NCBI GenBank assembly: GCA_052139675.1
Contig: JBKQWE010000026.1
Coordinates: 2,703-66,702, forward strand
Direction of reading: 5' to 3'
DNA: 64,000 bases
Origin: Candidatus Brocadiia bacterium
GTDB taxonomy: Bacteria > Planctomycetota > Brocadiia > CAIUPP01
Shown here one piece after another: positions 5,531 through 52,001 of the stretch. Position 1 is the first letter of the stretch, and every line of letters begins with the position of its first letter. The notes below the pieces were generated by a model. The model ran no database searches. It saw only the letters and a program-made list of their open reading frames with translations, and was not told the DNA's origin. The translations under genes and the position numbers were made by a program.

Positions 5531-5590
5531 GCGTTCTCTCTTGGCTCACATGTTGCGCAGCCGTCCGTGCCGCCGCGCCCGCATTTCATT

Positions 5591-7024: not shown

Positions 7025-7094
7025 GTTTTCTTCTCCTGTCGTTCAATGACCGCTCGCAGGGAAACGATCCCCGCGGCGAATTCCGCGGCAAACC

Positions 7095-8519: not shown

Positions 8520-8589
8520 GTTTTCCTCTCCTGTCGTTCCATGGCCGCGCGCAAGGAAACGATCCCTGCGTCGAATCCCGCGGGAAAGC

Positions 8590-24966: not shown

Positions 24967-24998
24967 CGTTCCACTCCCAAAGCAGCAACGGCTCGTTG

Positions 24999-27315: not shown

Positions 27316-28485
27316 TCAAATCGCGGCAAAAACTCCCGCCGCTCCCAAAATCGCCATGGGCTTCGGGTTTAAGAGAAGCATAAGCTCGTGCGTATGCCTA
27401 CGAGCGTTCCGGCCCGCTTCCGCGTGCACATGATCGCCTCTGCCGCCGAGCGTACTGAACTTGCTTTTGACAGGCTGTGTTGTAACGTAGAAGTACTTCT
27501 GCGATACCTCGCGCACCTTCTTGCCGGATAACCCGTTAGAGCAGTCATGGTCAGGGAAAGTCAGGATGGCTCTGGCACCGCGTGCTGCAATGGTGAGAAG
27601 TAAATCGTCCAAAGCGTTTGAGGACTCGCTGGTCACACTATACTTCGACCGAGGCCGCCGCGCTGGTTCTGGGTAGCGGCCGGCACCAGACACTTCGCCG
27701 CATTCACCTCGCGAAATCGTCTCCAAGACATGGTAGAAACGGCTGTAGTGAACGCCAGAATACGGTGGATCAATGAACACCAAGTCGTCATGAAGAAGTT
27801 CTTTAACTGCATCGTTCGCGTCGGCCACCTGCGCCTCGCCGCGGCAAAGCGCAAACTGGTTCGCCAATGAGTCAAAGGCGACACGGGTTTTGAATACAAT
27901 ATCCTTGTTCCATGCCTCTTGGAGGAATCTCCTCGCTGTCCGGGTCGGCTGGAAGGGCTGTGCTGTATGGCCGGGTGCGGCGGCGCATTGGCTCGCGGCT
28001 TGGATCAAAGCAGCTAGCGCAACCGTTTTGCCAGGTTCACCAGTGGGCAGGCTGCTCCTCAGCGCGTCTATCCAAACGGTCTGTTTCGGACTGTAATAGT
28101 GGCCACCGTAGGCTCTCGTTACAGGGAGGTGTGATTGTCCCATACTCCAAAGACGACAATCGGCAACGACGGCCCGGGTAAGCTTTACAGGAGCGGGAGA
28201 CCGTGTGGCACTACAAACGCTCACTGCACGGCGGTGCCACTCATACCAAATGGGCTCACCTTCGAGCTTCATCTGCCGATGCAAAACCGCGCCAGCGAGA
28301 ACGGTGCTGTAGCGCTGCAAGTCATAGGCGAGAACGGGTATGGAAAACTGACGTGCCACATGAATCGCAACGACACCTGATCCAGAGAACAAGTCCACGA
28401 AGCGCCGAGCATAAGGAGCTTGTCGGCCTAGCAGTTCGCCCAGGCCATTCTGTAACATTGCTCGCTTTGATCCCATGTACTTCAT
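27316..28485 (-). CDS. D12-class N6-adenine DNA methyltransferase (Dam-like)
   Basis: Start ATG 28485 (MKYMGSKRAM). Motifs YMGSK (D12 motif), FVDLFSGSGVV (SAM-binding FxGxG), LVFIDPPY (catalytic DPPY). 4-nt ATGA overlap with the upstream gene. Confidence 0.8.
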   Translation of the reverse strand: MKYMGSKRAMLQNGLGELLGRQAPYARRFVDLFSGSGVVAIHVARQFSIPVLAYDLQRYSTVLAGAVLHRQMKLEGEPIWYEWHRRAVSVCSATRSPAPVKLTRAVVADCRLWSMGQSHLPVTRAYGGHYYSPKQTVWIDALRSSLPTGEPGKTVALAALIQAASQCAAAPGHTAQPFQPTRTARRFLQEAWNKDIVFKTRVAFDSLANQFALCRGEAQVADANDAVKELLHDDLVFIDPPYSGVHYSRFYHVLETISRGECGEVSGAGRYPEPARRPRSKYSVTSESSNALDDLLLTIAARGARAILTFPDHDCSNGLSGKKVREVSQKYFYVTTQPVKSKFSTLGGRGDHVHAEAGRNARRHTHELMLLLNPKPMAILGAAGVFAAI

Positions 28486-28487
28486 GG

Positions 28488-29345
28488 TCAGTTCTTGAGC
28501 ACTTCGAGCCCGCCGTGTTCTGTAATTTGAAAATCGACGATACCGCTCACCCAAGTTGGGTTTCTATGCACGTTCCAAAAGCGACTACTTTGCACCAGAA
28601 TTTCGTCTAGGAACTTCCGGAACCTAACGATCCGATGATAAGCAACAACTTGAACATTGTCCAAATCAGGAAACTTGTTCGGCTTCGGTATCGGTGGCAC
28701 GGTGAAATCAATCTCCGAGATGCGTTGCACCCTGATTTTCAAACTCTCCACGTCGAGTACGCGAAAAGCGGGGTAAGGGAACAGATGGTCAACGTAGTTG
28801 GCACGGTCACGGTGCCCGACGTCGGAACAATCGTCAGGCTGCTGCGCTTTCTCATTCCTTGTAAACAGCGGGTCAGTTGCGAAATGACTGTCACTCTTCA
28901 CCTCGCGCCAATACAGGCAATGTTCTCTATCGCCAGCATTCTTAGTCCCGAAAGTGCAAACATGTTTGCCGCATTGCAAGCCTAGTCGGACGATGCGCCT
29001 ACGCCGGTGGAGATGAAAGCAACCGAGCAAATGTGCAATTGCTCGTACTGCGTAATGGCTGGAATAGTAACCCACACTCGAAGCCCAGAGTGGGCTGGCT
29101 TCCGTCAACGCTGCCGAGATCAAGAAGCTATGGACAGCGCGCAGCCAAATGTCGACAGCAGCGGTTGCGTACAGTGACGCTACCTCTGGCCGAACTGTGA
29201 CCGCAGGGTTCGCCTTCGGCGGCATGACTTGTTCCAAGGCCGTTGAGAGCGAAGCCGCTGGCGGGAAAGCATATTGAGCACGGCGGTTGTTCAGCGGCTT
29301 AAACGCTACCTGCAAGCGTGTCTGAAGCCCTCGGTCGATAGTCAT
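28488..29345 (-). CDS. hypothetical protein (possible His-Me-finger / HNH-like nuclease; speculative)
   Basis: No family recognised. Contains Cys/His-rich CFHLHRRRRIVRLGLQCGKHVC and a VDHLFP...N...H stretch reminiscent of DUF1524/HNH cores. Low G+C. 4-nt overlaps with both neighbours. Confidence 0.5.
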   Translation of the reverse strand: MTIDRGLQTRLQVAFKPLNNRRAQYAFPPAASLSTALEQVMPPKANPAVTVRPEVASLYATAAVDIWLRAVHSFLISAALTEASPLWASSVGYYSSHYAVRAIAHLLGCFHLHRRRRIVRLGLQCGKHVCTFGTKNAGDREHCLYWREVKSDSHFATDPLFTRNEKAQQPDDCSDVGHRDRANYVDHLFPYPAFRVLDVESLKIRVQRISEIDFTVPPIPKPNKFPDLDNVQVVAYHRIVRFRKFLDEILVQSSRFWNVHRNPTWVSGIVDFQITEHGGLEVLKN

Positions 29346-30718
29346 ATCGATCCCAACTCGCGCCGAACGTGAATTCTGTGCTTCACGGCAAGGGTTGCCC
29401 GCGCGTCAGGATCGAGTTTAGAGACATCTTGAGTGCCTACAACAGACGCCCAGAGCGTGTCTCGAAAACGCGCTAATCCGCCGCTCCCTAAAAAGCCTTT
29501 ATCCTTAAACTTCTTTTTCGCCACAAAACGACCGCCATCGACCAAGCCAGCCCGCGCCATAACTTCGCGAAGCCACTTAATAAGAATTCCCTTAGACGCA
29601 TCAGAAACCAGCGGCTGCTTCGCACTTTTGAGTTTCCAGATGCAGGCGGGCAAGAGCGTGAGGAATGTTACCACTACACGACCTTGATAGGCCACGTTAT
29701 CCGGGTCCAATTCTTCGCTATCGGCCAAGTCTTCCTTGCGTCCCGTCGCGTCCAACCATCCGTCCAGGCATTGGGCCAGGAATTCTGCCTGCGCCTCGAG
29801 ACTCGATACCCCTTCGTCGAATAAATCGTCGAGCACGTCCTCAATTGCAGAATTTAAAGTGGCTAGAGTCACGACATCCTTCACCCCGAACTTGATGCCA
29901 GGTATCTGGATCATGCCAACAAGCGGACCAATTTCGAGCATCAGCTTGCGTCCAAGGTCCTGAGCCCGTTCTTTGTTGTCTAGTGGCCCTCTTGCACCGC
30001 GTGCCGTCGGGAACAAGTCTGCGACCAAGGACCGATCCACTTTCTTCTGATAGAAGTTAACGTCAATGAATATTTGCGCTTGCCTACGAGGCGGGTCTTT
30101 GGGTTGATCGAGGTCGCGAAATATCTCCGCAGGAATTTCCCAAATAGCAGATGGCTGCGATTCCTTAAGCATCATAATTGCAAAGTACGCTCCGTTGATG
30201 CGATGTTGGCCGTCGATCACAGAAAAATTCAGCTCTGCGTCATTCTCATCGAACGTTAATGTCGCCGCGCCGTGTTCTCTTTGGATTCGGAATTCTTCCA
30301 ACCTCGCGCCGTTCACGTGGAGTAAGACATTTGAGAATGTCGGATACTCACTTCTCTGGTACCCTATAACATTACTGATTTTCGGCGGCCATTCTCTGCC
30401 GGACTCGTTCTTTTTAGGCTCGTAGATTTCACGAAAGCATTTATCCAGTTTCTTGGGCGCGTCAACGACCTCCTGTTGCAACAGGTAAGCCGCGATCTGT
30501 GCAACCCGCTTCCAGTCCAACGATCGTTGGATGCTGCGCACCTTCACTGGATTCCGATGTGGCGAATGCGGTTTTCCAGGCCACCACGTCATGAGCTTCT
30601 CTACGTTCAAAGCGCAGAGGCAGTGTTTCGCTTCGTGCAATTCCTTTGGTGCAAATGGATTAGCTGGCACAATGACGGAAATCCTGTGAATTCCATCAGA
30701 GTTTTCCGATGATGTCAT
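29342..30718 (-). CDS. DGQHR-domain protein (DndB/DpdB-like ParB/Srx-fold)
   Basis: Exact FSVIDGQHRINGAYFA motif. Size about 458 aa, as in DndB-like proteins. First gene of the overlapping trio. Confidence 0.7.
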   Translation of the reverse strand: MTSSENSDGIHRISVIVPANPFAPKELHEAKHCLCALNVEKLMTWWPGKPHSPHRNPVKVRSIQRSLDWKRVAQIAAYLLQQEVVDAPKKLDKCFREIYEPKKNESGREWPPKISNVIGYQRSEYPTFSNVLLHVNGARLEEFRIQREHGAATLTFDENDAELNFSVIDGQHRINGAYFAIMMLKESQPSAIWEIPAEIFRDLDQPKDPPRRQAQIFIDVNFYQKKVDRSLVADLFPTARGARGPLDNKERAQDLGRKLMLEIGPLVGMIQIPGIKFGVKDVVTLATLNSAIEDVLDDLFDEGVSSLEAQAEFLAQCLDGWLDATGRKEDLADSEELDPDNVAYQGRVVVTFLTLLPACIWKLKSAKQPLVSDASKGILIKWLREVMARAGLVDGGRFVAKKKFKDKGFLGSGGLARFRDTLWASVVGTQDVSKLDPDARATLAVKHRIHVRRELGSI

Positions 30719-33769: not shown

Positions 33770-35002
33770 CTAACCCTTATGCCAGCCCATTCGTTCGGCC
33801 ATCTCGCTGAGTAGGCTGCAGTACGCCAGCGTGTGGGCGACGGCGCTCAGCGGAAGGATGCGCACGCTGTAGCCGGGCACGTCAATCGCCGCATCGCCCG
33901 GCCGCCACGGCAGATCGAGCCAGAGCAGCCCCTCATGATCTTTCAGCGACGCGGGCCGCCCGTAAGGAGAAGTGTAGATGAACCGGATTCCCCGGCGCAG
34001 GATGGCGCCGACCTTCTGGACATCCACCGGCGCATAGCCCAGGTGGATGTACACGTCGCCCTTGCCCAGGTCGGCCGGCGTCGCGGTCGCCAAGTCGCTG
34101 TTGGTGGTTCCCCAGCGGACCGGGTAGTTGCTCTCCTTGGGCAGCCCGAGGATGTGCGGATAGGAGTGCCCGACGGCCGTCGCCGCGACGCGCTTCCCGG
34201 CGCGGTGCGCCTGGACCATCCAATCGCCGGCCCGCGTCAGCGCGCGCGACTGCCGATCGAGCGTCTCGATCATGGAATCAACCACCTGCAGATACTCCGC
34301 CGCGACGTGCCCGGCGGGCAGCGGCGGAACGTACCAGTCCTTGCTGTGGAAGAGCGGCACGAGCCACGGCTCGCGCCGGTTGCTCTCGTGCTGGGTGAGC
34401 GAAGTGTTGCGCGCGAGGGCGCCCTCGAGCCAGACGCTCATCCAGATCGCCGGCATCTGGCCCTTGCGGGTGCACGCGGCGATCATCTCGCCGGTGGTCA
34501 GCCAGCCGCGGACGAGCTGTTCGAACGGGCGGAAAGGCGCCAGCGGCCGATGCTCGCCCATCGCGTGCAGCCCTTCGTCGGCGCGCGCTCCGCCGGTGAA
34601 GCCGGCGATGCGGCGGCGGAGTTTCGCTTCCAGTTCGTCGGGGCGGCCGATGACGAAAAGCCGCCGGCGGCTGTTCAGTTGCTTCTGAAACGCCTCGTCC
34701 TCGGCCGGCTTCCACTGCCGGGGATCGGGCAGCCCGAAGAACGCAACGTCCTTGCTCACGCCGGGCCCTTCCGCCCAGCGGATGCCCATCAGCCCGCCGG
34801 CGCGGCCGGAGAACTCCGAGCGCGAGAAACTTCCCACCGGCGGCAGGGACAGATTTCCACCGGCCAGAAGCGGCTGGGCCATCCTCTCGCCTAGCCGGGT
34901 GAAATGCGCGGTCTCGCGCCGCACGGCGGCGGTCCGCCGGCTCGCCTCGGCCAGGAATTCCTGCGCCGGGGTGCGAGCGGTCTTCCGAGCTGCTCGTGGC
35001 AT
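33770..35002 (-). CDS. hypothetical protein
   Basis: Long ORF co-oriented with and 28 nt downstream of the SIS-domain gene. No family recognised. Confidence 0.45.
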   Translation of the reverse strand: MPRAARKTARTPAQEFLAEASRRTAAVRRETAHFTRLGERMAQPLLAGGNLSLPPVGSFSRSEFSGRAGGLMGIRWAEGPGVSKDVAFFGLPDPRQWKPAEDEAFQKQLNSRRRLFVIGRPDELEAKLRRRIAGFTGGARADEGLHAMGEHRPLAPFRPFEQLVRGWLTTGEMIAACTRKGQMPAIWMSVWLEGALARNTSLTQHESNRREPWLVPLFHSKDWYVPPLPAGHVAAEYLQVVDSMIETLDRQSRALTRAGDWMVQAHRAGKRVAATAVGHSYPHILGLPKESNYPVRWGTTNSDLATATPADLGKGDVYIHLGYAPVDVQKVGAILRRGIRFIYTSPYGRPASLKDHEGLLWLDLPWRPGDAAIDVPGYSVRILPLSAVAHTLAYCSLLSEMAERMGWHKG

Positions 35003-35029: not shown

Positions 35030-35791
35030 CTACAGGTCTTTGACGCGTGAGCGGTAGCGCTGGATCATCTCGCTGTTGAACGCATCGCCGCCGGGCAGAT
35101 TCGCGCTGCGGAAAATCGGCGGCTGCAAGCCGCGGCGGAGCATCTCCGTCACCGCCTCGATCACCATGCGATGCGCGATGTACGCATCCACCATCGTCGA
35201 GGTCGGCGCCAGCGCCACGTTGAATCCCTCCACCTTGAACGCCGCGTCGCCGTAGGGATTCTGATCGTCAATCGCCAGGTCGGCATAATCGAAGAGGTGC
35301 TTCTTGTTGGGATGGCGGATCGGGTGGTCGAGCGGCAGCTTGCGCCGCCAGTTCGAGGAGGAGATCGCGATGATCTTCGCCCCGCGCTTCTTGGCCTCTT
35401 CCGCCGCGTCAATCGTCGTGGGATTCATGCCGATATTGTGGAAGATGATCAGCAGGTCGTCGGCCCCGACGCCGTAGTAGCGGATGAGGCAGTTGGCGTA
35501 GCCGGTGGTGCGCTCGACCTCCAGGTACTTCAGCGCCTGGCAGACGGGCGTGATGTCGTGGCCGATGATCGGGTTGATGTTGGCCAGGCCGCCGGCGCGG
35601 AAGAACATCTCGAAGATCATCAGGCAGGTGTGCCCGCCGCCGCCATAGACGTGCACCAGCCGGTCCTGCTCATAGGCGTCGGCGATCATCGCGCCGGCGC
35701 GCACGAACTTCGCGGCGTTGCGCTTCTCGACCGACGCGAGCTTTGCGCCCACGTCCTTCAGATATTCCTGCCCGTAGTCGCGCTTGCGCAT
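35030..35791 (-). CDS. SIS (sugar isomerase) domain protein
   Basis: RLVHVYGGGGHTCLMIFEMFFRAGGL (P-loop-like SIS nucleotide/sugar-phosphate site), GADDLLIIFHNIGMNPTTIDAAEEAKKRGAKIIAISS. Confidence 0.65.
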   Translation of the reverse strand: MRKRDYGQEYLKDVGAKLASVEKRNAAKFVRAGAMIADAYEQDRLVHVYGGGGHTCLMIFEMFFRAGGLANINPIIGHDITPVCQALKYLEVERTTGYANCLIRYYGVGADDLLIIFHNIGMNPTTIDAAEEAKKRGAKIIAISSSNWRRKLPLDHPIRHPNKKHLFDYADLAIDDQNPYGDAAFKVEGFNVALAPTSTMVDAYIAHRMVIEAVTEMLRRGLQPPIFRSANLPGGDAFNSEMIQRYRSRVKDL

Positions 35792-35890: not shown

Positions 35891-37051
35891 TCAGGAGGCA
35901 TCGTAACGGCCCTTCTCCAGCGCCGCCTTATACATCGCCGCCAGGTTCTCCTCGGGCACGCGCGGCGGAAGGTTGTTGGCTTCAGTGAGGATGAATCGCC
36001 CGCCGGTCTTGATCCCGCTTTCCAGGATCTCGCAGGTGCGATCGTAGACCTGCTGCGGCGTGCCGTGGAGCAGCAGCATGATGCCCGGGCCGCCGTTGAT
36101 CTGCACGCCGGGGCCGAGTTCCCTGCGCATGCGGGCGAAATCAACCGGAAAGCCGCTGTCCCACGTCTGGACGTTCAGCTCGTCGCGCAGGGTCTTCATG
36201 TGACGCATAACGTCGCCGCACAGGTGAATCCCGCGCGGCTTATCGGGGGCGAATTCATCCAGGTAGCGCTGGTGCCGCGGCATGACCATCCGCTTGTACA
36301 TGGCCGTGCTGATGAGCTGGATGGAATCATCGGCCAGCCCGCCGCCGAGGCTTTCGTCGTTCCAGTATTTCCGCCAGGCGCGCACCCGCTTGATGGCGGC
36401 GTCGGTCAGGTAGTCGAGCAACCGTTCGGCGTACTCCGGGTCCTCGGCCATGTCCGTCATCATGTCCGTCCCGCGCAGGTTCATGCCCGTCGTCAAAGGC
36501 CCGTCGGTGCCGGCCTGGTCGTACCGGCCGACCTTCACGGGCCGACCTTGAAATATATAGTCCTTCGCGATCTTGCCCATCTCCTCATAGAACCGCAGGC
36601 CGCGCCTGGAGAGCGGATTTTCGATCGGCCGGTCAATGTCCACGGCGAAGATGCTTTCCTTATTGGCGGCGGTGAGGAACGGCTGAGTATCGGGAATCTG
36701 GCCTTCGCGGAAATGCCACGCGGCGCCGAAGAAGGCCGCCTCGTGCGTGTTCAGCCAGCTCACCGAGGCGGTCCACTGATCCGGCAGGCCCGTCGGCGAA
36801 TCGCAATAGCGGTTGATCACCGTGCGGCGAAGGTGCTCGTGGTCGAGCGCGGCTTCCATCATCACGCGCGGATCATTGAAGATTTGCTCGAAAGTCACGC
36901 CGCTGCGGTTGAGCTTCGGGTCGAGCACAACGATGCGCGCGTTGCTGGAGATGGACACCGGCACGCGGATCGGCTTGCGCTCATTGAAGGCCTTCCAGAC
37001 GGCTTCCTTCTCGGCATTGCTGATCTGCGGAATTTCCCAAGACATTGTCAT
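35891..37051 (-). CDS. URO-D family protein (second copy; uroporphyrinogen decarboxylase / MtaA-like fold)
   Basis: TIM-barrel URO-D-like motifs (RVPVSISSN, GTDGPLTTGMNLRG, IHLCGD). Immediately downstream of secreted-family copy P5, mirroring the P1 and 4427..5530 arrangement. Confidence 0.55.
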   Translation of the reverse strand: MTMSWEIPQISNAEKEAVWKAFNERKPIRVPVSISSNARIVVLDPKLNRSGVTFEQIFNDPRVMMEAALDHEHLRRTVINRYCDSPTGLPDQWTASVSWLNTHEAAFFGAAWHFREGQIPDTQPFLTAANKESIFAVDIDRPIENPLSRRGLRFYEEMGKIAKDYIFQGRPVKVGRYDQAGTDGPLTTGMNLRGTDMMTDMAEDPEYAERLLDYLTDAAIKRVRAWRKYWNDESLGGGLADDSIQLISTAMYKRMVMPRHQRYLDEFAPDKPRGIHLCGDVMRHMKTLRDELNVQTWDSGFPVDFARMRRELGPGVQINGGPGIMLLLHGTPQQVYDRTCEILESGIKTGGRFILTEANNLPPRVPEENLAAMYKAALEKGRYDAS

Positions 37052-37086
37052 CGCCTGGATTCAGGTTGGCCGACGGTGACAGCCGG

Positions 37087-38325
37087 TCACTGGCCGGCTC
37101 CGGGCTTTCCGCTGAAGCGGAGGACCCATTGAGGCGTCCACAGGCCGCCCCAACCGCCCGGATTAAAGTTGGCTATAAAAATCTCCCGCAGCGTCGGGTC
37201 AAAGGGCGCCAGGGCTTCCCAGAGTTCCCCGGGCTCGTCCGCCCAGCGCGGGTCGGGCCGGCCGCCGTCAATCATCTGGAACTTCGCGTTCTTGACCTGC
37301 TTGTTCCACATGAAGTCCCGGTTCGTCGCGATGAGGCGCGCGATGTCCTCCTTCGTGAAGACCAGGCCGTGCTCGTACGCCTCCGCGATCGCGCCGGTAT
37401 CAATCCCGTAGTACTCGCCGTGCGGGTGGACGCCCACCCAGTGCTTCAGAGTGCCATCCGGATTATGGTCCCACGGAACGCCCGGGTCCCAGTAGTCCCA
37501 GACGAAATACTTGCCGTCGTCGCGCAGCTTCATGCGAGACCGCATCACCTGGAACCACTTCTCGGCGCGTTCCTTGTAGACGGGCTTGTGCGTCACGTCG
37601 TACATGGCGAGCATCCACTCGGCGATGAGGTTCTCCTTGTTGTCCGGCAGGGAGTTGCCGTCCGTCATTCTTCGTTCATATCCGCCCGGCTCGGTCCACT
37701 TGCCGGTCTGAGGATCAAACCCGAAGGGCGGGACGACCCAGATGCCGCCTTCTTTCGTATCGCGCCAGGCGCCGCGCGAATCCCATTTCTCGAAGGTTCG
37801 CTCCGCAAGCCGGAGGTACTCTTCGGCCTTGGCGCCGTACTTTTCTTTCAGCGCCGGCGTCTTGAGAATTTCGCCGGCCATCAGCGCCAGCGGGCGAAGG
37901 AACATCGCATCGCCCACCTCGACGTCCGTGTAGCGCTCTTTCACGCCGGGCGGAAGGTACTCGACGACGCCGTCGTCCGCCGGCTTGGGCCAGCCGATGT
38001 AGCCGTCCGGCTCCTTCACGCCGCGCTTGATGACCGAGTCGCCCCAATCCACCAGCCGGTCCACCCACTCGCGGTCGCCGGTGGCCATGTAGCCGTAATA
38101 GAAACCGTTCAGGAACGGGCTGACCAGCCAGCCGATCTCCTCGCCCGTCGCCTGGTCGCAATAGCGGTCCCTGCTCTCGCGGAGGATGTTCTGCTTCCAG
38201 CGCTGCATCCATTCTTTGGCGAGCGCCGGATCCAGCGCCTGGCCCTGGGCGATGGAAAAGCCGCAAGGAAGAACCCACGCGAGGAGCAGTCCGCAGAGCG
38301 CGCCGCGATACAATCTGTGTGACAT
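37087..38325 (-). CDS. secreted protein, same uncharacterised family (copy P5; subfamily B)
   Basis: Start ATG 38325 (MSHRLYRGALCGLLLAWVLPCGFSIAQGQA) with a GAAAGGG ribosome-binding site. The track's longer N-terminus was rejected. Confidence 0.7.
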   Translation of the reverse strand: MSHRLYRGALCGLLLAWVLPCGFSIAQGQALDPALAKEWMQRWKQNILRESRDRYCDQATGEEIGWLVSPFLNGFYYGYMATGDREWVDRLVDWGDSVIKRGVKEPDGYIGWPKPADDGVVEYLPPGVKERYTDVEVGDAMFLRPLALMAGEILKTPALKEKYGAKAEEYLRLAERTFEKWDSRGAWRDTKEGGIWVVPPFGFDPQTGKWTEPGGYERRMTDGNSLPDNKENLIAEWMLAMYDVTHKPVYKERAEKWFQVMRSRMKLRDDGKYFVWDYWDPGVPWDHNPDGTLKHWVGVHPHGEYYGIDTGAIAEAYEHGLVFTKEDIARLIATNRDFMWNKQVKNAKFQMIDGGRPDPRWADEPGELWEALAPFDPTLREIFIANFNPGGWGGLWTPQWVLRFSGKPGAGQ

Positions 38326-38385: not shown

Positions 38386-39915
38386 TCAAGGTCCCGCGTC
38401 GGCGACACAATGGATAAGTGCAGCCAGCAACCCCACCAGCGCGGCCTCCGAGTCCGGGCTGAAGATGGCCGAGTTGGAGCCGTACCCGCCCAACGGGAAT
38501 TCCGCCGCGGTGGGCAGATAACCCAGGTATCCGTTGCATTCCTCCGCGACGATCACGCGCATCGGCGCGCAGCGTTTCCTGAGTTCCACGCTGTAGGCGC
38601 CGAAGGGTTCGCCGGGCAGGCCGGCCAGCGCCACGTCCCCGATCCGCACCGCGAAGAGCGGATGTCGAACCGGCCCGCCGGCGAGCGCCTCGACGGTCAA
38701 GCCGGTCCAACTCAGATGCGTGTCCTCCGCCGTATAGCTCAGGCGTTCGATTTCGTCGGAAAGCGGTTTCAACCGCTTCCACTTGTCCGGAACATTTGAA
38801 GCCCGCACTTCATGGAACTCCCGGCGAACCGTTTCCCGGGCCTTGTTCGCCTGCTCCGCCGAACGCGGATAATCGTCCCGGACCGGCAGCTCGACGGTGG
38901 TCGAATCCGCCCGCATGTTCGTCACCGGCTGCCATATCGCCGCCCGCAGCGCCTCCAGCAATTGTCGCGCGACCTGTTCGCCGGTCCGTTCCGCCAGCGC
39001 CCGCGACTTTTCGCCGACCAGCGGCGCCTGGTCGCCGCAGGGGCCGGTGAAGAAAACCGCCCCGCCGCCGAATTCGCGCCCCAGCGCCCGGCGCAGATAA
39101 AACGGATAATCGCCGCTGTGATGGACGCTCCTGCCCTGGCGCGCCACGTTGGCCGTAATCGGATGCGCGGCCCAGCGGCTGATGCTGCCCAACGGCCGGC
39201 CATCGGCTGCCCTGAAAAAGATCCCCTGGATCAGCGGGTCGTCCGGCTCGTCCAGGGTCAAATCCCGAGGCACAGGCGGCAGCGGATCGCGCAACGGAGG
39301 CCATTGCGCGGACGCGGGATAAGGATGCCTCAGCGCAATCTCCGGCCCGACCATCAACCCCTTCAAGGCGAGTTCCAGCAGCTCCGCGCAGCCGGCCTGT
39401 CCGTCCGGGCGCACGTCGAAACCGTAATAGAAAGTGAAGGTCCCGACGCCGTCGAATCTCTTCCGCCGCTTGACCACGCCGGCCGGGCGCGGCGCCGTTT
39501 CGACATAAGCCATCGAGGCCGGTTGCGCCGCGCGCAGCGCCTGATCGGCGACTTCGGCAAACCGAGCGGCCAGCCGATCGAGATCGAACTCAGCCGGGCT
39601 GTCCAATGGAACGCCGTGGTTCTGCGTGCAGAACACGCCCACCTGTTCCGGCGTCGCGCCGATGGTCCGGGCGACCTGGTCCCGGATTCTCAGGCAGGTC
39701 GCCGGCAGCATGGAAAGCATGTCGCAGTTCATGACGGCGACCGGCGGGCGCCGGCCCTTGCGCAGGACCAGCGCGTTCGCCTCGATGTCGTCTTCAAACG
39801 GCAACGCCGTCGCCCACGTGCCTCGCAGGCTCGCCCGGCCGAAGCCGACACTTACGGCGTCGGCTTTGACGGCATGAGCTTTGGAAAGCATGGTACGCTC
39901 CACAGCGCAAGTCAA
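38386..39915 (-). CDS. neutral/alkaline ceramidase-like hydrolase (N-terminal domain homology)
   Basis: ANALVLRKGRRPPVAVMNCDMLSML...VFCTQNHGVP resembles the ceramidase_alk core (ARAFVF..VVFVSADL...ISGTHTHSGP). Start uncertain. Confidence 0.4.
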   Translation of the reverse strand: MTCAVERTMLSKAHAVKADAVSVGFGRASLRGTWATALPFEDDIEANALVLRKGRRPPVAVMNCDMLSMLPATCLRIRDQVARTIGATPEQVGVFCTQNHGVPLDSPAEFDLDRLAARFAEVADQALRAAQPASMAYVETAPRPAGVVKRRKRFDGVGTFTFYYGFDVRPDGQAGCAELLELALKGLMVGPEIALRHPYPASAQWPPLRDPLPPVPRDLTLDEPDDPLIQGIFFRAADGRPLGSISRWAAHPITANVARQGRSVHHSGDYPFYLRRALGREFGGGAVFFTGPCGDQAPLVGEKSRALAERTGEQVARQLLEALRAAIWQPVTNMRADSTTVELPVRDDYPRSAEQANKARETVRREFHEVRASNVPDKWKRLKPLSDEIERLSYTAEDTHLSWTGLTVEALAGGPVRHPLFAVRIGDVALAGLPGEPFGAYSVELRKRCAPMRVIVAEECNGYLGYLPTAAEFPLGGYGSNSAIFSPDSEAALVGLLAALIHCVADAGP

Positions 39916-40820
39916 TCCTCAAGGTTCAGCCGGCGCAGTTCCTCCGGCGCGAGTTGGACCTCCAGCGCCCGCAAGGCGCCGCGGAGATGATCGGCCGAGC
40001 TTGTCCCGATGATGCCGAAAGTCGGGAACGGCTGACAGAGCACGTAGGCGAGGGCGATGTTGATCGGCTGAACGCCGCGTTTTGCGGCCAGTTCCCTGGC
40101 GCGCGTCAGCCGCTGGAAATTGTCCTCGCTGTACCAGCAGCGGGCGAACTCCGGTTCCGAGCGGTCTCCCGGCTTCGCGCGCCCGGCGAAAAAGCCGCAC
40201 GCCTGGCTCGACCAGGAGACGAGCGGCATCTGCGTGCGGCGGAACCACTCGCGCGAGGGCGCGTCGGACGAGGCGAGGCATCCGCTCACCGGCGCCTCGA
40301 CCATCCGCGCGAGGCTGAAGTGGTTGCTGATCGCCGCAAAGCCGGCCAGGCCGCGCGAGCGCGCGTACTGGTTCGCGGCTTCGACGCGCTCGAGGCTCCA
40401 GTTCGATCCGCCGATGACGCGCATCCGCCCGGCCCGCCGATGCTCATCCAGCGCATCCACGAATTCACCGACCGGGACCTCTGGGTTGTCGCGGTGGAGC
40501 ATGTAGAGGTCCACGTAATCCGTCTGCAGGCGCTCCAGGCTCTCCATGAACTGAACGGTGAGGTCCTTCGGCGTGCAGAACGGCGTGTGCGCGCCCTTGT
40601 CGAGGATGATGACCCGCCCGCGGATATCCCGGCTCTTCACCCACTGCCCGAGGGTTTTTTCGCACGCCCCGTAGCCGTAGATCCAGGCGGTGTCGAAGCA
40701 GTTCCCGCCGGAGTTGATGAACTCATCGTAGACCACTTCCGCGCGCGCCAGGTCCTGGATCGCGCCCATGACCACGCGCGAGACGGGCGCTTCGATCCCC
40801 GGTATCCGGCCGAATTTCAT
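39912..40820 (-). CDS. aldo/keto reductase
   Basis: Start at MKFGRIPG. GNCFDTAWIYG, LDKGAHTP and IIGTSSADHLRGAL motifs of AKR family. Confidence 0.8.
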   Translation of the reverse strand: MKFGRIPGIEAPVSRVVMGAIQDLARAEVVYDEFINSGGNCFDTAWIYGYGACEKTLGQWVKSRDIRGRVIILDKGAHTPFCTPKDLTVQFMESLERLQTDYVDLYMLHRDNPEVPVGEFVDALDEHRRAGRMRVIGGSNWSLERVEAANQYARSRGLAGFAAISNHFSLARMVEAPVSGCLASSDAPSREWFRRTQMPLVSWSSQACGFFAGRAKPGDRSEPEFARCWYSEDNFQRLTRARELAAKRGVQPINIALAYVLCQPFPTFGIIGTSSADHLRGALRALEVQLAPEELRRLNLED

Positions 40821-41253
40821 ATGGCGGCCCTTTCCTGTGGCAATCACCTGCCGGGACCGGATACTAACCGCAGCCCGCCGATTATTCAAGCGGGCGGCGG
40901 CGCATAGGGGTTTTCCCTACGCCAAGAATGGGCGCGCGCCCGATTGATCGCCGCCGCCGGTCTGGTAAGATGCCGAATGTGGGGCGAGAGCCGGTCGCGA
41001 GGGTGTGCGGGAAGATGTGCGGGGGCAAACCCGGACGGCTGGATCGAAGCAAGGCGGTTCGACGTGGAAACGTCGAGCCGTCTTCTTTTTAACGGTCAGT
41101 TGGGCGCCTGCGGTTTGAGCGGTTCGGCCGGCCGAGGCGGCGGGCAGCAGGACAACCGGGATCGCCCGCTCCGGCGCGAATTCGATCCGCCGATTCTTGA
41201 CAGGTATGGACAGGCGGCGTAACATGACGCGGATCAATTTTAAGGAGTCCGGC

Positions 41254-43442: not shown

Positions 43443-44717
43443 TCACCGGCCGGCCTCGCGCTTCGGCCCGAAGCGGGCGACCCATGCAGGCGTGGCGACG
43501 AAGCCCAGGCCCTCCCAACTGGCCGGATCGGCGGTGGCTTCGATTTCAAAAAGCTTCCGCAGCGTCGGGTCATAAGGCGCCAGGGCGGTCCAGAGCAGGC
43601 CCGGCGGCACGCGCGCGGCGGGCTTCTCGCCATCAATCCGCTGGAATTCCGGGTTCTTGAGCTGCTGGTTCCACATGAAATCCCGGTTCGTGGCGATGAG
43701 GCGGGCGATGTCTTCCTTCGTGAAGACCAGGCCATGCTCCCACGCCGCCGCGATCGCGTCCACGTCCAGCCGGTAGTAGCGGCCGTTCGGGTGCACGCCC
43801 ACCCAGTGCTTGAGCGAGCCATCCGGCTTGTAGTCCCACGGGCCGGCCGGGTCCCAGTAGTTCCAGACGAAATACTTGCCGTTCTCGCGGAGCCTCATGC
43901 GCGACTTCTGCACGCGCATCCACTTCTCGACCCGTTCCCGGTAGATCGGTTTCTGCGTCACGTCGTACATGGCGATCATCCACAGGGTGATCGAGTTTTC
44001 CTTGTTGTCCGGCATGGAGACGCCGTCGGTTTTTCTCTGCTCGTATCCCTCGGTCCACTGGCCGGTCCGGCGGTCAATCCCGAAGGGCGGGATGACCCAG
44101 ACCCCGCCGCCGTCCTTGGTCTCGCGCCAGGCGCCGCGCGATTCCCATTTCTCGAACGTGCGTTCGGCGAGCCGGATGTATTCCTCGGCCTTCGCACCGT
44201 ATTCCTTCTTCAGGGCCGGCGACTTGAGGATCTCGCCGGCCATCAGCACGATGGGGCGAAAAAACCACGCGTCGCCCACCTCCGTATCCGTATAGCGCTC
44301 CTTCATGCCGTCGGGAAGGTACTCGAGGACGTCGCCGTTCTCATCCCTGGGCCAGCCGATGTACCCGTCCGGCTCCTTCACCCCGCGCTTCACCACGGAG
44401 TCGGTCCAGTCTATGAACCGGTCCACCCACTCGCGGTCGCCCGTGGCCATGTAGCCCTGGCAGAACCCGCTCAGGAACGGGCCGCCGACCACGTCGGCGA
44501 TCGCCTCGCCCATGACCTGGTCGCACCAGCGCGTGCGGCTCTCGCGGAGGATGGTCTCCTTCCAACGCTGCATCCACTCCCTGGCGAGCGCCGGATCCAT
44601 GCGCGCTCCTGCCGTCGCCGCGTCGTTCGTCTGGCCCTGGGCGATGGAGAAACTGCACGGAAGAATCCCCGCGAGGAGCAGTCCGCAGATCGCGCCGCCG
44701 TACAATCTACGTGTCAT
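43443..44717 (-). CDS. secreted protein, same uncharacterised family (copy P6; subfamily B)
   Basis: Start ATG 44717 (MTRRLYGGAICGLLLAGILPCSFSIAQGQT) with a GGAAAGGG ribosome-binding site. Confidence 0.7.
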   Translation of the reverse strand: MTRRLYGGAICGLLLAGILPCSFSIAQGQTNDAATAGARMDPALAREWMQRWKETILRESRTRWCDQVMGEAIADVVGGPFLSGFCQGYMATGDREWVDRFIDWTDSVVKRGVKEPDGYIGWPRDENGDVLEYLPDGMKERYTDTEVGDAWFFRPIVLMAGEILKSPALKKEYGAKAEEYIRLAERTFEKWESRGAWRETKDGGGVWVIPPFGIDRRTGQWTEGYEQRKTDGVSMPDNKENSITLWMIAMYDVTQKPIYRERVEKWMRVQKSRMRLRENGKYFVWNYWDPAGPWDYKPDGSLKHWVGVHPNGRYYRLDVDAIAAAWEHGLVFTKEDIARLIATNRDFMWNQQLKNPEFQRIDGEKPAARVPPGLLWTALAPYDPTLRKLFEIEATADPASWEGLGFVATPAWVARFGPKREAGR

Positions 44718-44922: not shown

Positions 44923-46335
44923 TCACTGCGTGTAGCCGAGGCTCTTCAGTTGTCTGAGCAGCTCCGGATCCGGTTCATTCGCTTTCCCCGTATTGACCTT
45001 GGCAATTGAGGTCGGCCCCGTCGTCAAGGCTCGGAGTGCGGCCTCCGGACAGGCTTTCTTCAGGTCCGCGCCGGCGACGACCTTTTCGCGGTCGCCTGTC
45101 ACCTCTTCCAGTTGGGCTTCGGCAAGCGTTCCCGGCGTGCCCAAAAGCTTGTGATGGTCCCATCGAACCGCTCTCAAGTTACACTCAAACTCCGCCAGCT
45201 CGCTGTAGATCAGGCGCTCGGGGACCGGCTTGTCGCTCAGAATCATGGGCGACAGGTCAATCCCTTGAATCTTCGAGGGGCACGGCAGTTGGAGAAGCCC
45301 CAGCGCCGTCGGCATCAGGTCAACATGGCTGACGTTTCCGGCCACGCGCTTGCCGGCCGGGATGACACCCGGCAGCCGCATGATCAGCGGCGCGTGCAGT
45401 TCCTCTTCGTACAGGCTGTTGCCGTGGTAGAGCAGGCCATGTTCAAGAAATGCCTCGCCGTGATCGGACAAAACGATCACCAGCGTCTTCCCGGAAATCC
45501 CCAGGTCCTGAAGGAGTTGAAGGATCTTGCCGACATGCTCGTCCGTGAAGGCGATTCCCCCGTCGTAAAGAGCCTCCATATGCGCCAGGTCCCTGATCGA
45601 GATCCGCGACATGAGATCGTCTCGCTTCGCGCGCTGCATGATGGCGCGGCCGTTCTCCCGGCCTTTGTAATCGGGGTCGAATTTCCTGTCGAAGGGCGCG
45701 GGCGGATAATAGTCGCTATGGCAGTCCCAATAGTGCAGGAAGAGGAAGAAGTTCTCCCGGGAATGCTTCTTGAGCCATTCCGTGGCCAGATCCGTAATCA
45801 CGGGATTCCTGCGGACTGGGGGGGCGCGTAAAGCCGTCATCTTCAAGACCGTGAAGTCGTCATATGATTTGAAGCCGCGGTCGAATCCGAAGTGGTGATC
45901 CAGCGAGGGACCATTGATGAAGGCCTGCGTCAAGTATCCGATTTTGGCCAGACACTGCGCCAGCGTCGGAACGCCTTCGCCCAGTTGACTGCGAATGGTC
46001 TCCACGCCGTGGACGCTGGGATAAAGGGAGGTGAACATGCTCATGTGCGACGGCACCGTCCAGGACGACGCCGAGGTCAAGTTCTCAAAAAGGACCCCTT
46101 CCCTGGCCAGTTGGTCGAGATGGGGCGAGGTGTCCTGGTTATAGCCGTAGCATTTCAGGTGGTCGGCGCGCAGGGTATCTATCGAGATGATCAGCAGATT
46201 ATACTTGATCGGCGGCGGCGGCGCGGCGGGGCGCCGACAGTCAAGGCCGATGAAGGAAATCAACACCAGGCAGCACAGAAAGCCTCGGACGCAACGCGAG
46301 GCAAGCCCGGAAGATGCCGCTTGGGTGCGCATCAT
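44923..46335 (-). CDS. sulfatase-fold (alkaline-phosphatase superfamily, PF00884-like) membrane-anchored enzyme with Thr at the nucleophile position; probably a hydrolase/transferase, not a true sulfatase
   Basis: Start MMRTQAASSGLASRCVRGFLCCLVLISF (N-terminal anchor). ISIDTLRADHL...SASSWTVPSHMSMFTSLYP aligns to sulfatase C-x-P-x-R but reads T-V-P-S-H. Confidence 0.7.
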   Translation of the reverse strand: MMRTQAASSGLASRCVRGFLCCLVLISFIGLDCRRPAAPPPPIKYNLLIISIDTLRADHLKCYGYNQDTSPHLDQLAREGVLFENLTSASSWTVPSHMSMFTSLYPSVHGVETIRSQLGEGVPTLAQCLAKIGYLTQAFINGPSLDHHFGFDRGFKSYDDFTVLKMTALRAPPVRRNPVITDLATEWLKKHSRENFFLFLHYWDCHSDYYPPAPFDRKFDPDYKGRENGRAIMQRAKRDDLMSRISIRDLAHMEALYDGGIAFTDEHVGKILQLLQDLGISGKTLVIVLSDHGEAFLEHGLLYHGNSLYEEELHAPLIMRLPGVIPAGKRVAGNVSHVDLMPTALGLLQLPCPSKIQGIDLSPMILSDKPVPERLIYSELAEFECNLRAVRWDHHKLLGTPGTLAEAQLEEVTGDREKVVAGADLKKACPEAALRALTTGPTSIAKVNTGKANEPDPELLRQLKSLGYTQ

Positions 46336-46636
46336 CGAGAAGCACTCCGATACTTCAGATTGACGGAGGCCGCCCAGACCAGACGCTCCGAAGGCAGCCG
46401 GCGCCGCCAACGGGATGACTTTACCACAAGGAACTAACCGCCGCAATGGTTCCGGCCGCGGGCGACCGAAGTTCCCGCAGCCTTTTCGGCAAAGCTCAGG
46501 CGATTGTCCCGATGTTTTTTCGTTGCCGTTTGGTATTCCGCGAAGTAGAATGCCGCGGAGTCGGGCGACGTGGCCACCGGCCGGCCGCCGGTCCGGGAAA
46601 TCATCCGACGGGTGTTATAACAGTGAGGGAACGGCC

Positions 46637-47104
46637 ATGACGACGGAAGAGCGGCTGGAGAAAGTGGAGAAGGAATCGGCCGCAGCGAAGCGGCAGCTTC
46701 GACGGCTGATGATCGGCGGGCCGATCGGGCTGGCATGCGTCGCAGTCCTCCTGGCGCTGTGGGCGCGGCCGGCGGAGGTGCAGGCGCGAAAATTCGTCCT
46801 GCTCGACGAGAACGGCAAGACTCGCGCCCTGCTGGCCATGGAGGAGTTCGGGCCGAGGCTGAGCCTGGCCGACGCGCAAGGCAAGACCCGCGCCGCGCTG
46901 TGCGTGGCGAAGACCGGGCCGGTGTTGAACCTGTCCGACATGAACGGCACCGCCCGCGCCGGCCTCGCCGTGCTGAAGGATGGGCCGGTGCTGAACCTGG
47001 ACTATGGGAACGGCAAGACCCGCGCCCTGCTGGCCGTGGAAGAGGGCGGACCGGGCATGCGGTTGTACGACGGGAACGACAAGATCCTCTGGTCCGCGCC
47101 GTAA
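46637..47104 (+). CDS. small membrane-anchored tandem-repeat protein (4.5 x ~22-aa repeats, xNGKTRAxLAVxxxGPxLNLxD)
   Basis: GAGGGAA ribosome-binding site before ATG 46637. N-terminal hydrophobic helix, then DENGKTRALLAMEEFGPRLSLA / DAQGKTRAALCVAKTGPVLNLS / DMNGTARAGLAVLKDGPVLNLD / YGNGKTRALLAVEEGGPGMRLY / DGNDKILW. Confidence 0.5.
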   Translation: MTTEERLEKVEKESAAAKRQLRRLMIGGPIGLACVAVLLALWARPAEVQARKFVLLDENGKTRALLAMEEFGPRLSLADAQGKTRAALCVAKTGPVLNLSDMNGTARAGLAVLKDGPVLNLDYGNGKTRALLAVEEGGPGMRLYDGNDKILWSAP

Positions 47105-47141
47105 CGGTCGCGAGAACGGCGGCAGGGAACCCTTCCATCCT

Positions 47142-48580
47142 TCACTGGGTGTAGCCGAGGCTCTTCAGCCGGCCGATGAGTTCCGCATCCGATTCATCCG
47201 ATTTCCCCGCATGGGCCGTGGAGATCGAAGGCGGGCCCTCTGTGAAGGCTCGGAGCGTCGCTTCCGGACAGGCTTTCTTCAGGCCCGTCCAGTCGGCAAT
47301 GACCTTCTCGCGGCCGCCGGCCACTTCTTCCAATTGGGCGCCGGCCAGTGTTCCCATCGTGCCCAGGAGCTTGCGATTGCCCCAGCGAACCGCTCTCAAG
47401 TTAAGCCCGCTGAACGTCATCTCGCTGTAGATCAGGCGCTCGGGAACCGCCTGATCGCCCAGGATCATCGGCGACAGGTCAATCCCTTGCATCTGCGCGG
47501 GGCCCCTCAGATGAAGGAGCCCCAGCGCCGTCGGCATCAAGTCAACGTGGCTGATATTTCCGGCCACGCGCTTGCCGGCCGGGATCACGCCCGGCAGCCG
47601 CATGATCAGAGGGACGTGAAGCAGCTCTTCGTACAGGCTGTTGCCGTGGCGAAGCTTGCCGTGCTCGAGGAATGCCTCGCCGTGATCGGATAGAACGATC
47701 ACCAGCGTCCTCTCGGAAATCCCCAGGTCCTGGAGCAGTTGAAGGATCCTGCCGACGTGCTCGTCCGTGTGGGCGATTTCCCCATCGTAGAGAGCCATCA
47801 TGTGCGCCAGGTCCATGACCGAGATATACTTCAGGATGTCTCGCTCGCGCTCGAAGACACGGCGGCCATTCTCTGCACCCTGGTAGCCGGGGTCGAATTT
47901 CCTGTCGTAGGGCGCGGGCGGAACATAGTCGTAATGGCAGTCCCAATAGTGCAGGAAGAGGAAGAAATTCTCGCGGGAATGCTTCTTGAGCCATTGTGTG
48001 GCCAGATTCGTGATCACAGGATTCGTGACGACCCGGTCAAGCCTGCCGCTGTCCTGCAGCGCCGCTGCTCCCGGTTCCTCGAACGTCAGGCCGACTGTGA
48101 AATCATCATAGAAACGGAAGCCGCGGTTGAATCCGTAGCGGTGGTTCAGCGGCGGCCCCGTGACGAACGCCGCGGTCACATATCCGCTTTGGGCAAGGCA
48201 CTGCGCCAGGGTCGGAACGCCTTCGCCCAGCTTATTATCGAAGTCCTGCACGCCGTGGACGCTGGGATAAAGCGAGGTGAACATGCTCATGTGCGACGGC
48301 ACCGTCCAGGACGACGCCGCGGTCAGATTCTCAAAAAGGGTCCCTTCCCTGGCCAGTTGATCGAGATGAGGCGAGGTGTCCCGGTCGTAGCCGTAGCATG
48401 TCAGGTGATCGGCGCGGCAGGTATCTATTGAGATGAGGAGAAGGTTGTACCTGGGCGCCGGCGGCGGCTCCGCCGCGCAGACGGTCAGGGTGGACAGACA
48501 GCAGACCAGGATCAGGCCGGCCAGAACGCAGCCGGCCGCTCGCAAAAGACCGCCGACGCGCCTAAAACATCGGCTTCCCA
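47142..48580 (-). CDS. sulfatase-fold enzyme, paralog of 44923..46335 (Thr nucleophile position)
   Basis: Start MGSRCFRRVGGLLRAAGCVLAGLILV. Same TSPHLDQLAREGTLFENLTAASSWTVPSHMSMFTSLYP motif. Its 5' end overlaps the stop of the upstream gene by 19 nt. Confidence 0.7.
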
Positions 48581-50763: not shown

Positions 50764-52001
50764 CAGAGGTTCACCTCCTGGACGAGGCCGCCGCCGGCTG
50801 TTTCCGGCCCGCGCGTCAGGATCAGGCGGCCGAGTTCCGGGACGCAGGAGGGAAGCTCCGCGACGATCGGCCGGTCGAGAGCGATGACGACCTCGCCCAG
50901 CTCCGTCTCCTCCAGGCGGTCCGCCGGCGCTTCCAGCGTTTCCAGCGAGGCCGAATCCATCCGCCGCTCGATGGACTCGACCCTGCCGGAAATCTCCTGC
51001 GTCGAAAGACGCACCTGAAGCGCTTCTCCCTTCCGGCAGGCATTGCCCGCCATCCAGAAGACGCTGGCGCGGAACCGGCTCGTCGGGCTCGGCAGCGTCC
51101 CCGCGCAGCCGATGTCTCCGCGCGAGGGCAACCGGGCGGAATCGAGCGCCAGCCCGATGCATTCGCCGCTGACCGCTTCGTTGCGCTCCTGGCCGAAAAC
51201 CTCGACGCCCGTCACCCGGGTCTTCAGGCCCGAAGGCAGGAATAGAAGCGCCTGGCCCGCCTCCAAGCGCCCCGACTCGATGCGCCCGACCAGGAGCTTG
51301 CGCCCGTTCCAGGCGTAAATATCCTGAACCGGGAACCGCAGCGGCCCCTCGACGGACCGCGAGATCGCCTGCAGCGCGTCGAGCGCTTCCAGGAGGATGG
51401 GACCGTCATACCAGCTCATGGCGTCGGAACGATGCTCGACGTTCTCGCCCAGCAGCGCCGAGCCGGGAATAGACGATGCGGACTCCAGGCCCACGGCCTT
51501 GAGATACTGCCTTGCCGCTTCGGCCACGGCCTCGAACTGCGCGCGATCATGGTTGACCTTGTCCATCTTGTTGATCCAGACGAGCACCTGGCGGATTCCC
51601 ATGAGGGAGAGGAAATGGGCATGCCGCTTCGTCTGCTCGCGCACCCCTTCGCACACGTCCACGACCAGGACCGCCGCCTCGGCCTGGGCGGCGCCGGTGA
51701 TCATGTTGCGCATCAGCTCCCGATGGCCGGGCGCGTCTATGATGACGTAGTCGCGCCGGGGCGTGTGAAAGAAGGCCTGGGCGGTGTCAATGGTCATCTC
51801 GTCCCGGCGCTCTTCCTGGAGGTGGTCCATCAGGTGGGCGTACTCCATCTCGCGCCCGCGCTCCAGGGAGACCTGGCGGATCTCCTCCAGCCTTTCCGGC
51901 GCCACGGAGCCGGTGTCGCTGAGGAGCCGGCCGATGAGCGTGGATTTCCCGTGGTCGAGATGGCCGACGATGACCAGCTTGAGGGTCTCGCGTTCCGGCA
52001 T
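50763..52001 (-). CDS. cysN: sulfate adenylyltransferase subunit 1 (GTPase CysN; no APS-kinase fusion)
   Basis: G1 [27 protein letters not shown] boxes, followed by EF-Tu-like beta-barrel domains. Confidence 0.8.

Follow-up and report, generated by a model that had tools for sequence, protein, structure and literature searches.

Neighbouring genes for exported P-family proteins and UroD-superfamily proteins in a carbohydrate-utilisation region of a peat planctomycete

Genes for a family of exported proteins, here called P, lie immediately upstream of genes of the uroporphyrinogen decarboxylase (URO-D) family at two places in a 64,000-nucleotide (nt) stretch of DNA from a Candidatus Brocadiia bacterium of the Planctomycetota (assembly GCA_052139675.1, contig JBKQWE010000026.1, positions 2,703 to 66,702; hereafter the window). 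The window is 64% GC, almost all of its genes are carried by the minus strand, and close relatives of its loci come from Sphagnum peat (SPRUCE) metagenomes. The two pairs, P1 followed by URO-D1 and P5 followed by URO-D2 (Table 1), had been described in the original prediction as copies of one two-gene module. Their coordinates, the shared gene order, the gaps of 60 and 35 nt and the location of all four genes on the minus strand were verified; although the open reading frame (ORF) of P5 can be extended to 38370, the start at 38325 is backed by a 412-amino-acid (aa) NCBI homologue and by the family alignment. The family assignments held as well. Both downstream genes score above the PF01208 cut-off of 23.9 bits, and all six P proteins of the window begin with a basic-hydrophobic, export-signal-like N-terminus ending in AQ(G)Q, a feature that the URO-D proteins do not have. 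No terminator-like site was found on the coding strand between the partners of either pair, and no terminator-like or promoter-like site was reported in the 35-nt spacer between P5 and URO-D2. Given the short spacers, the shared strand and the lack of terminators, each pair is, as judged from the DNA, likely to be co-transcribed. Only two of the six P paralogues, P1 and P5, have a URO-D neighbour.

The six P paralogues, three of which (P1-P3) stand in tandem at 5591..9741, fall into two subfamilies: A (P1-P3), with 73-78% identity between members, and B (P4-P6), with 67-71%, the identity between subfamilies being 46-52%. P1 is 76-78% identical to P2 and P3 and about 50% identical to P4-P6, and it shares with P2 an insertion of about 90 aa that is found neither in P3 nor in subfamily B. 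When the P proteins were compared with Pfam and NCBIfam no model scored above its cut-off, the GH88 and GlcNAc-2-epimerase families giving weak matches of about 16 bits (15.9-16.2 bits for PF07470, GH88/GH105, which has a gathering score of 26.6), and a sequence search of the PDB with P5 returned no match. An AlphaFold2 model of a P protein (pTM 0.81, mean pLDDT 77) takes the form of an (alpha/alpha)6 barrel, the fold of six-hairpin glycosidases and epimerases. An exhaustive search at E < 1e-3 placed the family in 604 clusters at 50% identity; its alignment contains many invariant Asp, Glu and His residues, and distant relatives carry fused CBM_4_9, Ig-like, Listeria-Bacteroides-repeat or PEP-CTERM domains. 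Compared with proteins that have been characterised, the P proteins are only 10-13% identical to the GH105/GH88 unsaturated rhamnogalacturonyl and glucuronyl hydrolases (PDB 4xuv, 1vd5, 1nc5), and their sequence match to the AGE superfamily (cellobiose 2-epimerase, mannose isomerase, sulfoquinovose isomerase YihS) lies below the cut-off. Moreover, AGE enzymes are cytoplasmic, whereas the P proteins have signal peptides and distant P relatives have CBM or Ig-like domains. Because the AGE family and GH76 score as well as GH88/GH105, these matches do not discriminate between a hydrolase and an isomerase chemistry for P. From the modelled fold we infer that the P family may comprise undescribed exported carbohydrate-active enzymes, either glycan-cleaving or glycan-isomerising, which have expanded into tandem arrays in this lineage.

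The P arrays appear dynamic. While the window has three copies separated by spacers of about 70 nt, six copies stand in a row in the metagenome locus L086 (659..8518; L numbers denote the loci compared), and the P2-like copy of L159 (4422..5959) broken as it is into two ORFs, is probably a pseudogene.

The proteins encoded downstream have a UroD-type (beta/alpha)8 barrel and so belong, at the level of fold, to the UroD superfamily, which includes HemE, MetE, epoxyalkane:CoM transferase and the corrinoid-dependent O-, S- and halogen-demethylases (PMC10418091). True HemE was considered and rejected, since PF01208 covers only the C-terminal half of the proteins and HemE in the PDB gave an E value of 0.11 with URO-D2 and no match with URO-D1. 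Furthermore, no haem-biosynthesis genes were found around either copy, and the His-x-Cys motif of both proteins resembles that of MtaA. MtaA (4ay7) is also the best PDB sequence match of URO-D1 (E 2e-4). The motif, His-x-Cys-Gly, is invariant as H276/C278 in 29 relatives of URO-D2 and as H248/C250 in 23 sequences of URO-D1 and of two further P-adjacent subfamilies, URO-D3 and URO-D4 (see below), and it aligns with the HICG of MtaA. Where MtaA has its distal Cys ligand, URO-D1/3/4 have an invariant His334 and URO-D2 has an invariant Asn359; besides H248, C250 and H334, the invariant residues of URO-D1 include D209. A comparison of the active sites with those of MtaA and HemE, which the original prediction had proposed, thus gives a divided answer: the His-x-Cys element is of the MtaA type in both URO-D copies, but the third Cys is kept in neither. 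This motif is a putative metal site in both proteins.

The same prediction had pointed to cobalamin-dependent methyl transfer or decarboxylation as the usual role of URO-D-fold enzymes outside haem synthesis. On the methyl-transfer reading, URO-D1 and URO-D2 would be enzymes of the MtaA or O-demethylase type that demethylate sugars released by P, with the corrinoid protein encoded elsewhere and the Wood-Ljungdahl pathway as the next step. The existence of O-, S- and halogen-demethylating corrinoid methyltransferases within the superfamily, the retention of the MtaA His-x-Cys motif, a gene for an acetyl-CoA synthase/carbon monoxide dehydrogenase (ACS/CODH) beta-subunit domain 3 kb from URO-D1, and an anaerobic host with an [FeFe] hydrogenase are all in keeping with such a scheme. 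The gene in question, at 100..1224 on the plus strand, encodes the C-terminal domain of the beta subunit, is syntenic in the related loci L159 and L160 (where it encodes 633-649 aa), and hints at a Wood-Ljungdahl-type enzyme in this planctomycete. However, a scan of the window genes yielded neither a B12-binding (corrinoid) protein nor an activase, the 25 commonest families of 121 immediate neighbours of URO-D2 orthologues, all with 2 or more members, include none that binds B12, and no such protein was seen in the URO-D1 loci examined. The substitution of the third Zn ligand by His or Asn weighs in the same direction, as do the scores of the two proteins, which at 44-56 bits fall far short of the NCBIfam MtaA/MtbA cut-offs of 235-600 (43.6 and 55.7 bits against 244 for NF004889; 40.9 and 47 against 235.4 for TIGR01463). 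Unlike the methylcobamide:CoM methyltransferases MtaA and MtbA (4ay7), these proteins come from a bacterial, non-methanogenic host that encodes no corrinoid partner nearby. The Type I mlp clusters, which combine MtaA-like proteins with a corrinoid protein and a RACE activase (PMC10418091), resemble the present loci in having UroD paralogues in non-methanogenic bacteria, often several per locus. With the corrinoid partner missing both from the window and from the frequent neighbours of URO-D2 orthologues, we regard corrinoid-dependent methyl transfer as quite unlikely here.

URO-D1 and URO-D2 fit no characterised branch of the superfamily. The families most commonly found beside URO-D2 orthologues are other URO-D paralogues (11), PhyH dioxygenases (7) and AraC regulators (7), together with GH4, GFO/IDH/MocA and PIG-L deacetylases. 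Loci with three to five URO-D paralogues within 13-17 kb, interleaved with SBP_bac_5, DeoR or AraC, and PhyH genes, were also observed (L161, JBFOMW010000715.1, 2516..13077; L015; L022; L030), and these make up a large expansion of orphan UroD-superfamily members in organisms other than methanogens and acetogens. In the literature on URO-D-family genes in polysaccharide or Planctomycetes contexts we found nothing relevant.

If the two pairs were functional units, the genes would be expected to stay together in related genomes, and absence of the pairing from relatives had been named in advance as the observation that would count against it. For P5/URO-D2 this is what was found. Only one of 80 genomic loci with a URO-D2 orthologue (L001) has a P gene within 8 kb, and this locus is 93% identical and syntenic across the 17 kb compared; the pair is also kept in three peat metagenome contigs (L081-L083) at 92-93% identity. 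No P gene lies near the next-closest orthologues, which are 84-86% identical to URO-D2 (L167, L168 and L171); there, the genes upstream of URO-D2, beyond a gap of more than 460 nt, are xylose-isomerase-like and GFO/IDH/MocA genes. The downstream side is more stable. Directly after URO-D2 in L167 and L168 lie a SIS_2 gene (92-93% identical) and a gene for a 408-aa protein (84-87% identical), and in L001, L167 and L168 alike SIS_2 adjoins URO-D2 (92-98% identity) and is followed by a homologue of the 410-aa protein of the window. Because the P gene is absent at 84-86% identity while these two genes remain, URO-D2 forms the stable unit together with SIS_2 and the gene for the 410-aa protein. P5 joined it upstream only recently, and the relatives that have it there are all at 92% identity or above. 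The surroundings in L167 and L168, with a GH20b/NAGidase carrying CBM9, a GHMP-kinase/NTP-transferase fusion and an N-acetyltransferase, have an amino-sugar flavour. Relatives of URO-D2 at 61-66% identity share no conserved context.

The other pair, P1/URO-D1, is retained by two relatives of about 87% identity (L159 and L160), in which P genes stand on both sides of URO-D1, and it is absent at 75% identity and below. The order of genes in L159 is P3-like, P3-like, the split P2-like copy, URO-D1 and P4-like, and in L160 it is P2-like, URO-D1 and P4-like, as compared with P3, P2, P1 and URO-D1 in the window, where no P gene follows URO-D1. The flanks of L159 and L160 are syntenic with those in the window: Methyltransf_2 lies with a 426-aa gene to one side, and DUF547, VTT, Pyr_redox and ACS/CODH genes lie to the other. 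L159 belongs to the same assembly as L167, the locus in which URO-D2 has no P gene. Among URO-D1 orthologues of other phyla, at 75% identity or less, no P gene was present in the contexts examined, which instead include URO-D paralogues with SBP_bac_5 and DeoR, GH31/GH123, and FmdA/GFO/AP_endonuc_2, among others.

The claim that the window holds a duplicated module was not borne out. As originally described, P1 and P5 come from different subfamilies and the URO-D copies are divergent; identity is about 50% between the former, and 23% over about 250 aa (E 1e-6) between the latter. Each URO-D protein is, however, closer to orthologues from other phyla (57-75%) than to the other copy: orthologues of URO-D1 at 70-75% identity occur in Armatimonadota, Poribacteria, Kiritimatiellia, Latescibacterota and Chloroflexota, and orthologues of URO-D2 at 45-57% identity occur in Anaerolineae (up to 57%), Phycisphaerae and others. 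The split between URO-D1 and URO-D2 must therefore be far older than that between P1 and P5, from which it follows that the two pairs were assembled independently. If a P/URO-D unit had truly been copied as a segment and the URO-D copy had then diverged fast, this would explain why order, strand and short spacers are alike in both pairs; nonetheless, with these orthologue identities, and with conserved cores and third-ligand residues that differ between the copies in the alignment, we think such a duplication very improbable. URO-D1 itself is unusually strongly conserved, remaining about 70% identical across at least six phyla (homologues P0244-P0360) despite wholly different neighbours.

To look beyond the window, we catalogued the neighbours of 94 P genes, drawn from 78 P-centred metagenome loci together with the window, after neighbouring ORFs had been filtered by GC3 > GC1 against the antisense shadow ORFs of high-GC DNA. 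Directly downstream, 10 of them have a further P gene and five have a URO-D gene, four of these five representing one orthologous locus; the rest of the neighbours were diverse. Two further URO-D proteins, both members of PF01208, are encoded directly upstream of a P gene: URO-D3 (L087/L090), which is 22% identical to URO-D1 and URO-D2, and URO-D4 (L104), which is 35% identical to URO-D1. A larger recurrent arrangement of an aldo/keto reductase (AKR) gene, a gene X, URO-D and P, considered in a comparison of the window with L090, was rejected, as the X proteins are non-homologous and the AKRs only 24% identical. Since the genes around the P/URO-D pairs are in general non-homologous between examples, there is no larger recurring module.

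These counts also bear on the suggestion that a URO-D enzyme modifies its secreted neighbour. For a post-translational maturation of the P protein before export, only adjacency and likely co-transcription speak. URO-D neighbours are missing for four of the six P paralogues of the window and for more than 90% of the sampled P genes, the URO-D subfamilies have a much broader distribution than P and are common in genomes and loci that lack P genes, the URO-D proteins carry no export signal of their own, and the two are too different to share one common protein substrate. We consider this explanation extremely unlikely.

Taking the conservation, the divergence and the neighbourhood counts together, we think it probable, with moderate confidence, that the two pairs are independent juxtapositions within carbohydrate-catabolism clusters of an anaerobic peat-bog planctomycete, and neither copies of a module nor a dedicated two-protein system. 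Several observations weigh against this. Four deep URO-D subfamilies (URO-D1 to URO-D4) each directly adjoin a P gene. When orthologues were collapsed at 85% identity and the comparison was made within P-centred loci only, URO-D made up four of 103 P-adjacent gene groups and none of 223 non-adjacent groups within 6 kb (Fisher p = 0.0096). Within the window, both URO-D genes directly follow P genes, an arrangement with a nominal, post hoc chance by our own arithmetic of 6/1035 = 0.006, given four non-P slots directly downstream of P genes and about 46 non-P genes. In relatives of about 87% identity, the P1/URO-D1 pair has remained while the P array around it changed. The adjacency counts, the chance of 0.006 and the survival of this pair suggest more than random placement. 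In addition, the enzymatic roles that the favoured reading gives to P and URO-D proteins are inferred from fold and context alone.

What these points would favour is a coupling at the level of the pathway, in which P releases a modified sugar outside the cell, UroD enzymes carry out a needed cytoplasmic step, and selection repeatedly brings the two families together in any order. The adjacency of four independent URO-D subfamilies, on either side of P genes, the position of URO-D1 between P genes in L159 and L160, the short spacers without terminators and the low nominal probability within the window all speak for it. On the other hand, URO-D accounts for only about 4% of de-duplicated P neighbours, 79 of the 80 URO-D2 loci and all distant URO-D1 loci are without a P gene, and P5/URO-D2 is lost at 84-86% identity even though URO-D2 keeps its other partners. 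Moreover, the enrichment weakens to p of about 0.1, again by our own arithmetic, once the two discovery cases are removed, and the genes between or around the pairs are non-homologous across examples. We therefore treat selected coupling as a tentative and rather doubtful alternative. The adjacency of P and URO-D is a weak, lineage-restricted tendency, compatible either with membership of both families in one stock of genes for glycan catabolism or with a loose link through a pathway. The functional link at which the pairing had seemed to hint thus survives at most at the level of a catabolic pathway, with which the weak family-level enrichment fits; a dedicated partnership does not.

The setting of the two pairs within the window is that of a carbohydrate-utilisation region, with sulfatases, a beta-helix lyase-like protein, and SIS, GFO/IDH/MocA, AKR and xylose-isomerase-like genes. 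Directly upstream of P6, at 44923..51162 on the minus strand, are the genes of two sulfatases, which are paralogues with 69% identity, and of an 866-aa protein with a phosphodiesterase domain; this group fits the degradation of a sulfated glycan. The 509-aa protein encoded upstream of P5 has no Pfam, NCBIfam or PDB match, and its gene is syntenic in L001 and L081-L083. For the 410-aa protein there was no Pfam family and no useful PDB sequence match, only a weak N-terminal match to NF002805. Elsewhere in the window there is a HydABC-type [FeFe] hydrogenase gene set (22664..27017, minus strand). It encodes a hydrogenase large subunit bearing Fe-S domains, a thioredoxin-like 2Fe-2S subunit and a NuoF-like flavoprotein, and suggests that the host is a fermentative anaerobe whose hydrogenase bifurcates electrons. 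A D12-class N6-adenine DNA methyltransferase, a 285-aa protein with no family assigned and a DndB-like protein, grouped at 27316..30718 (minus strand), may form a DNA-modification or defence islet between the metabolic genes.

Table 1 Features of the window, with the two P/URO-D pairs first and their neighbours and paralogues after them.
Feature	Coordinates	Strand	Evidence
P5, exported six-hairpin (alpha/alpha)6-barrel protein (fold from model), subfamily B, 412 aa from supported start	37087..38325	-	
P5/URO-D2 spacer, 35 nt	37052..37086	-	sequence read
URO-D2, cytoplasmic UroD-superfamily TIM-barrel protein, 386 aa	35891..37051	-	PF01208 73.3 bits
P1, exported P-family protein, subfamily A, ~90-aa insertion	5591..7024	-	ORF, identity to paralogues, family alignment, signal-like N-terminus
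P1/URO-D1 spacer, 60 nt	5531..5590	-	sequence read
URO-D1, cytoplasmic UroD-superfamily protein, 367 aa	4427..5530	-	PF01208 46.8 bits, cross-phylum homologues
SIS_2 sugar-isomerase-domain protein, downstream partner of URO-D2	35030..35791	-	PF13580 105.9 bits; NCBIfam NF002805 221.7 bits against cut-off 135
410-aa protein of unknown family, third member of conserved URO-D2 trio, after SIS_2	33770..35002	-	
509-aa unknown protein upstream of P5, 4-nt overlap with AKR gene	38386..39915	-	ORF
Aldo/keto reductase (AKR), first gene of same-strand run ending at 33770	39912..40889	-	PF00248 158 bits
P2, tandem P-family paralogue, subfamily A	7095..8519	-	ORF, alignment, signal-like N-terminus
P3, tandem P-family paralogue, subfamily A, without insertion	8590..9741	-	ORF, alignment, signal-like N-terminus
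DUF1565/right-handed beta-helix protein (pectate-lyase-like), directly upstream of P3-P2-P1 array	9785..11557	-	Pfam PF07602 and PF13229, weak PelN/PelX matches
P4, P-family paralogue, subfamily B, no URO-D neighbour, convergent with M24-like gene	21151..22425	-	
P6, P-family paralogue, subfamily B, followed by xylose-isomerase-like TIM-barrel gene, not URO-D	43443..44717	-	

On the favoured reading, that of independent juxtapositions, the P enzymes would act on a glycan outside the cytoplasm and release sugars from it, acidic or sulfated polysaccharides being possible targets suggested by the beta-helix gene at 9785..11557 and the sulfatases at 44923..48704. The products would be imported and then processed by cytoplasmic enzymes, sometimes of the URO-D type. 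URO-D2, SIS_2 and the 410-aa protein may together convert a derivative of a sugar or amino sugar after its import, by way of a His/Cys-centred site that probably binds a metal, while URO-D1 would be a highly conserved stand-alone enzyme that happens here to lie within a P array of changing copy number. A more specific proposal can be made, which we hold to be unlikely: that a new, lineage-expanded extracellular six-hairpin family adjoins four UroD branches with a His/Cys-type metal site because the latter perform an undescribed cytoplasmic step on a modified sugar derived from Sphagnum or other plants, for example the removal of a methyl or carboxyl group from a methylated or uronic sugar, with no corrinoid protein encoded in the cluster. 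If true, this step would be the first function for the orphan 'uroporphyrinogen decarboxylase family proteins' of sugar-utilisation loci.

In summary, as a module the pairs carry little weight, having been assembled independently and, in the case of P5/URO-D2, being evolutionarily short-lived; what the window presents is a region for carbohydrate utilisation in which uncharacterised members of two known superfamilies cluster in an ordinary way. Two things of use come out of it: a secreted six-hairpin family that is probably new, and an orphan enzyme of the UroD superfamily that is well conserved. Very many proteins annotated as 'uroporphyrinogen decarboxylase family' in Planctomycetota, Chloroflexota, Armatimonadota and other phyla lie in sugar or amino-sugar loci without corrinoid partners, and URO-D1, at about 70% identity across phyla, is a good target for characterisation. 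The P family, which spans about 600 clusters at 50% identity, stands in arrays of as many as six copies and is covered by no model in Pfam or NCBIfam, is a candidate new family of carbohydrate-active enzymes, and appears to belong to the means by which anaerobic peat Planctomycetota break down glycans.

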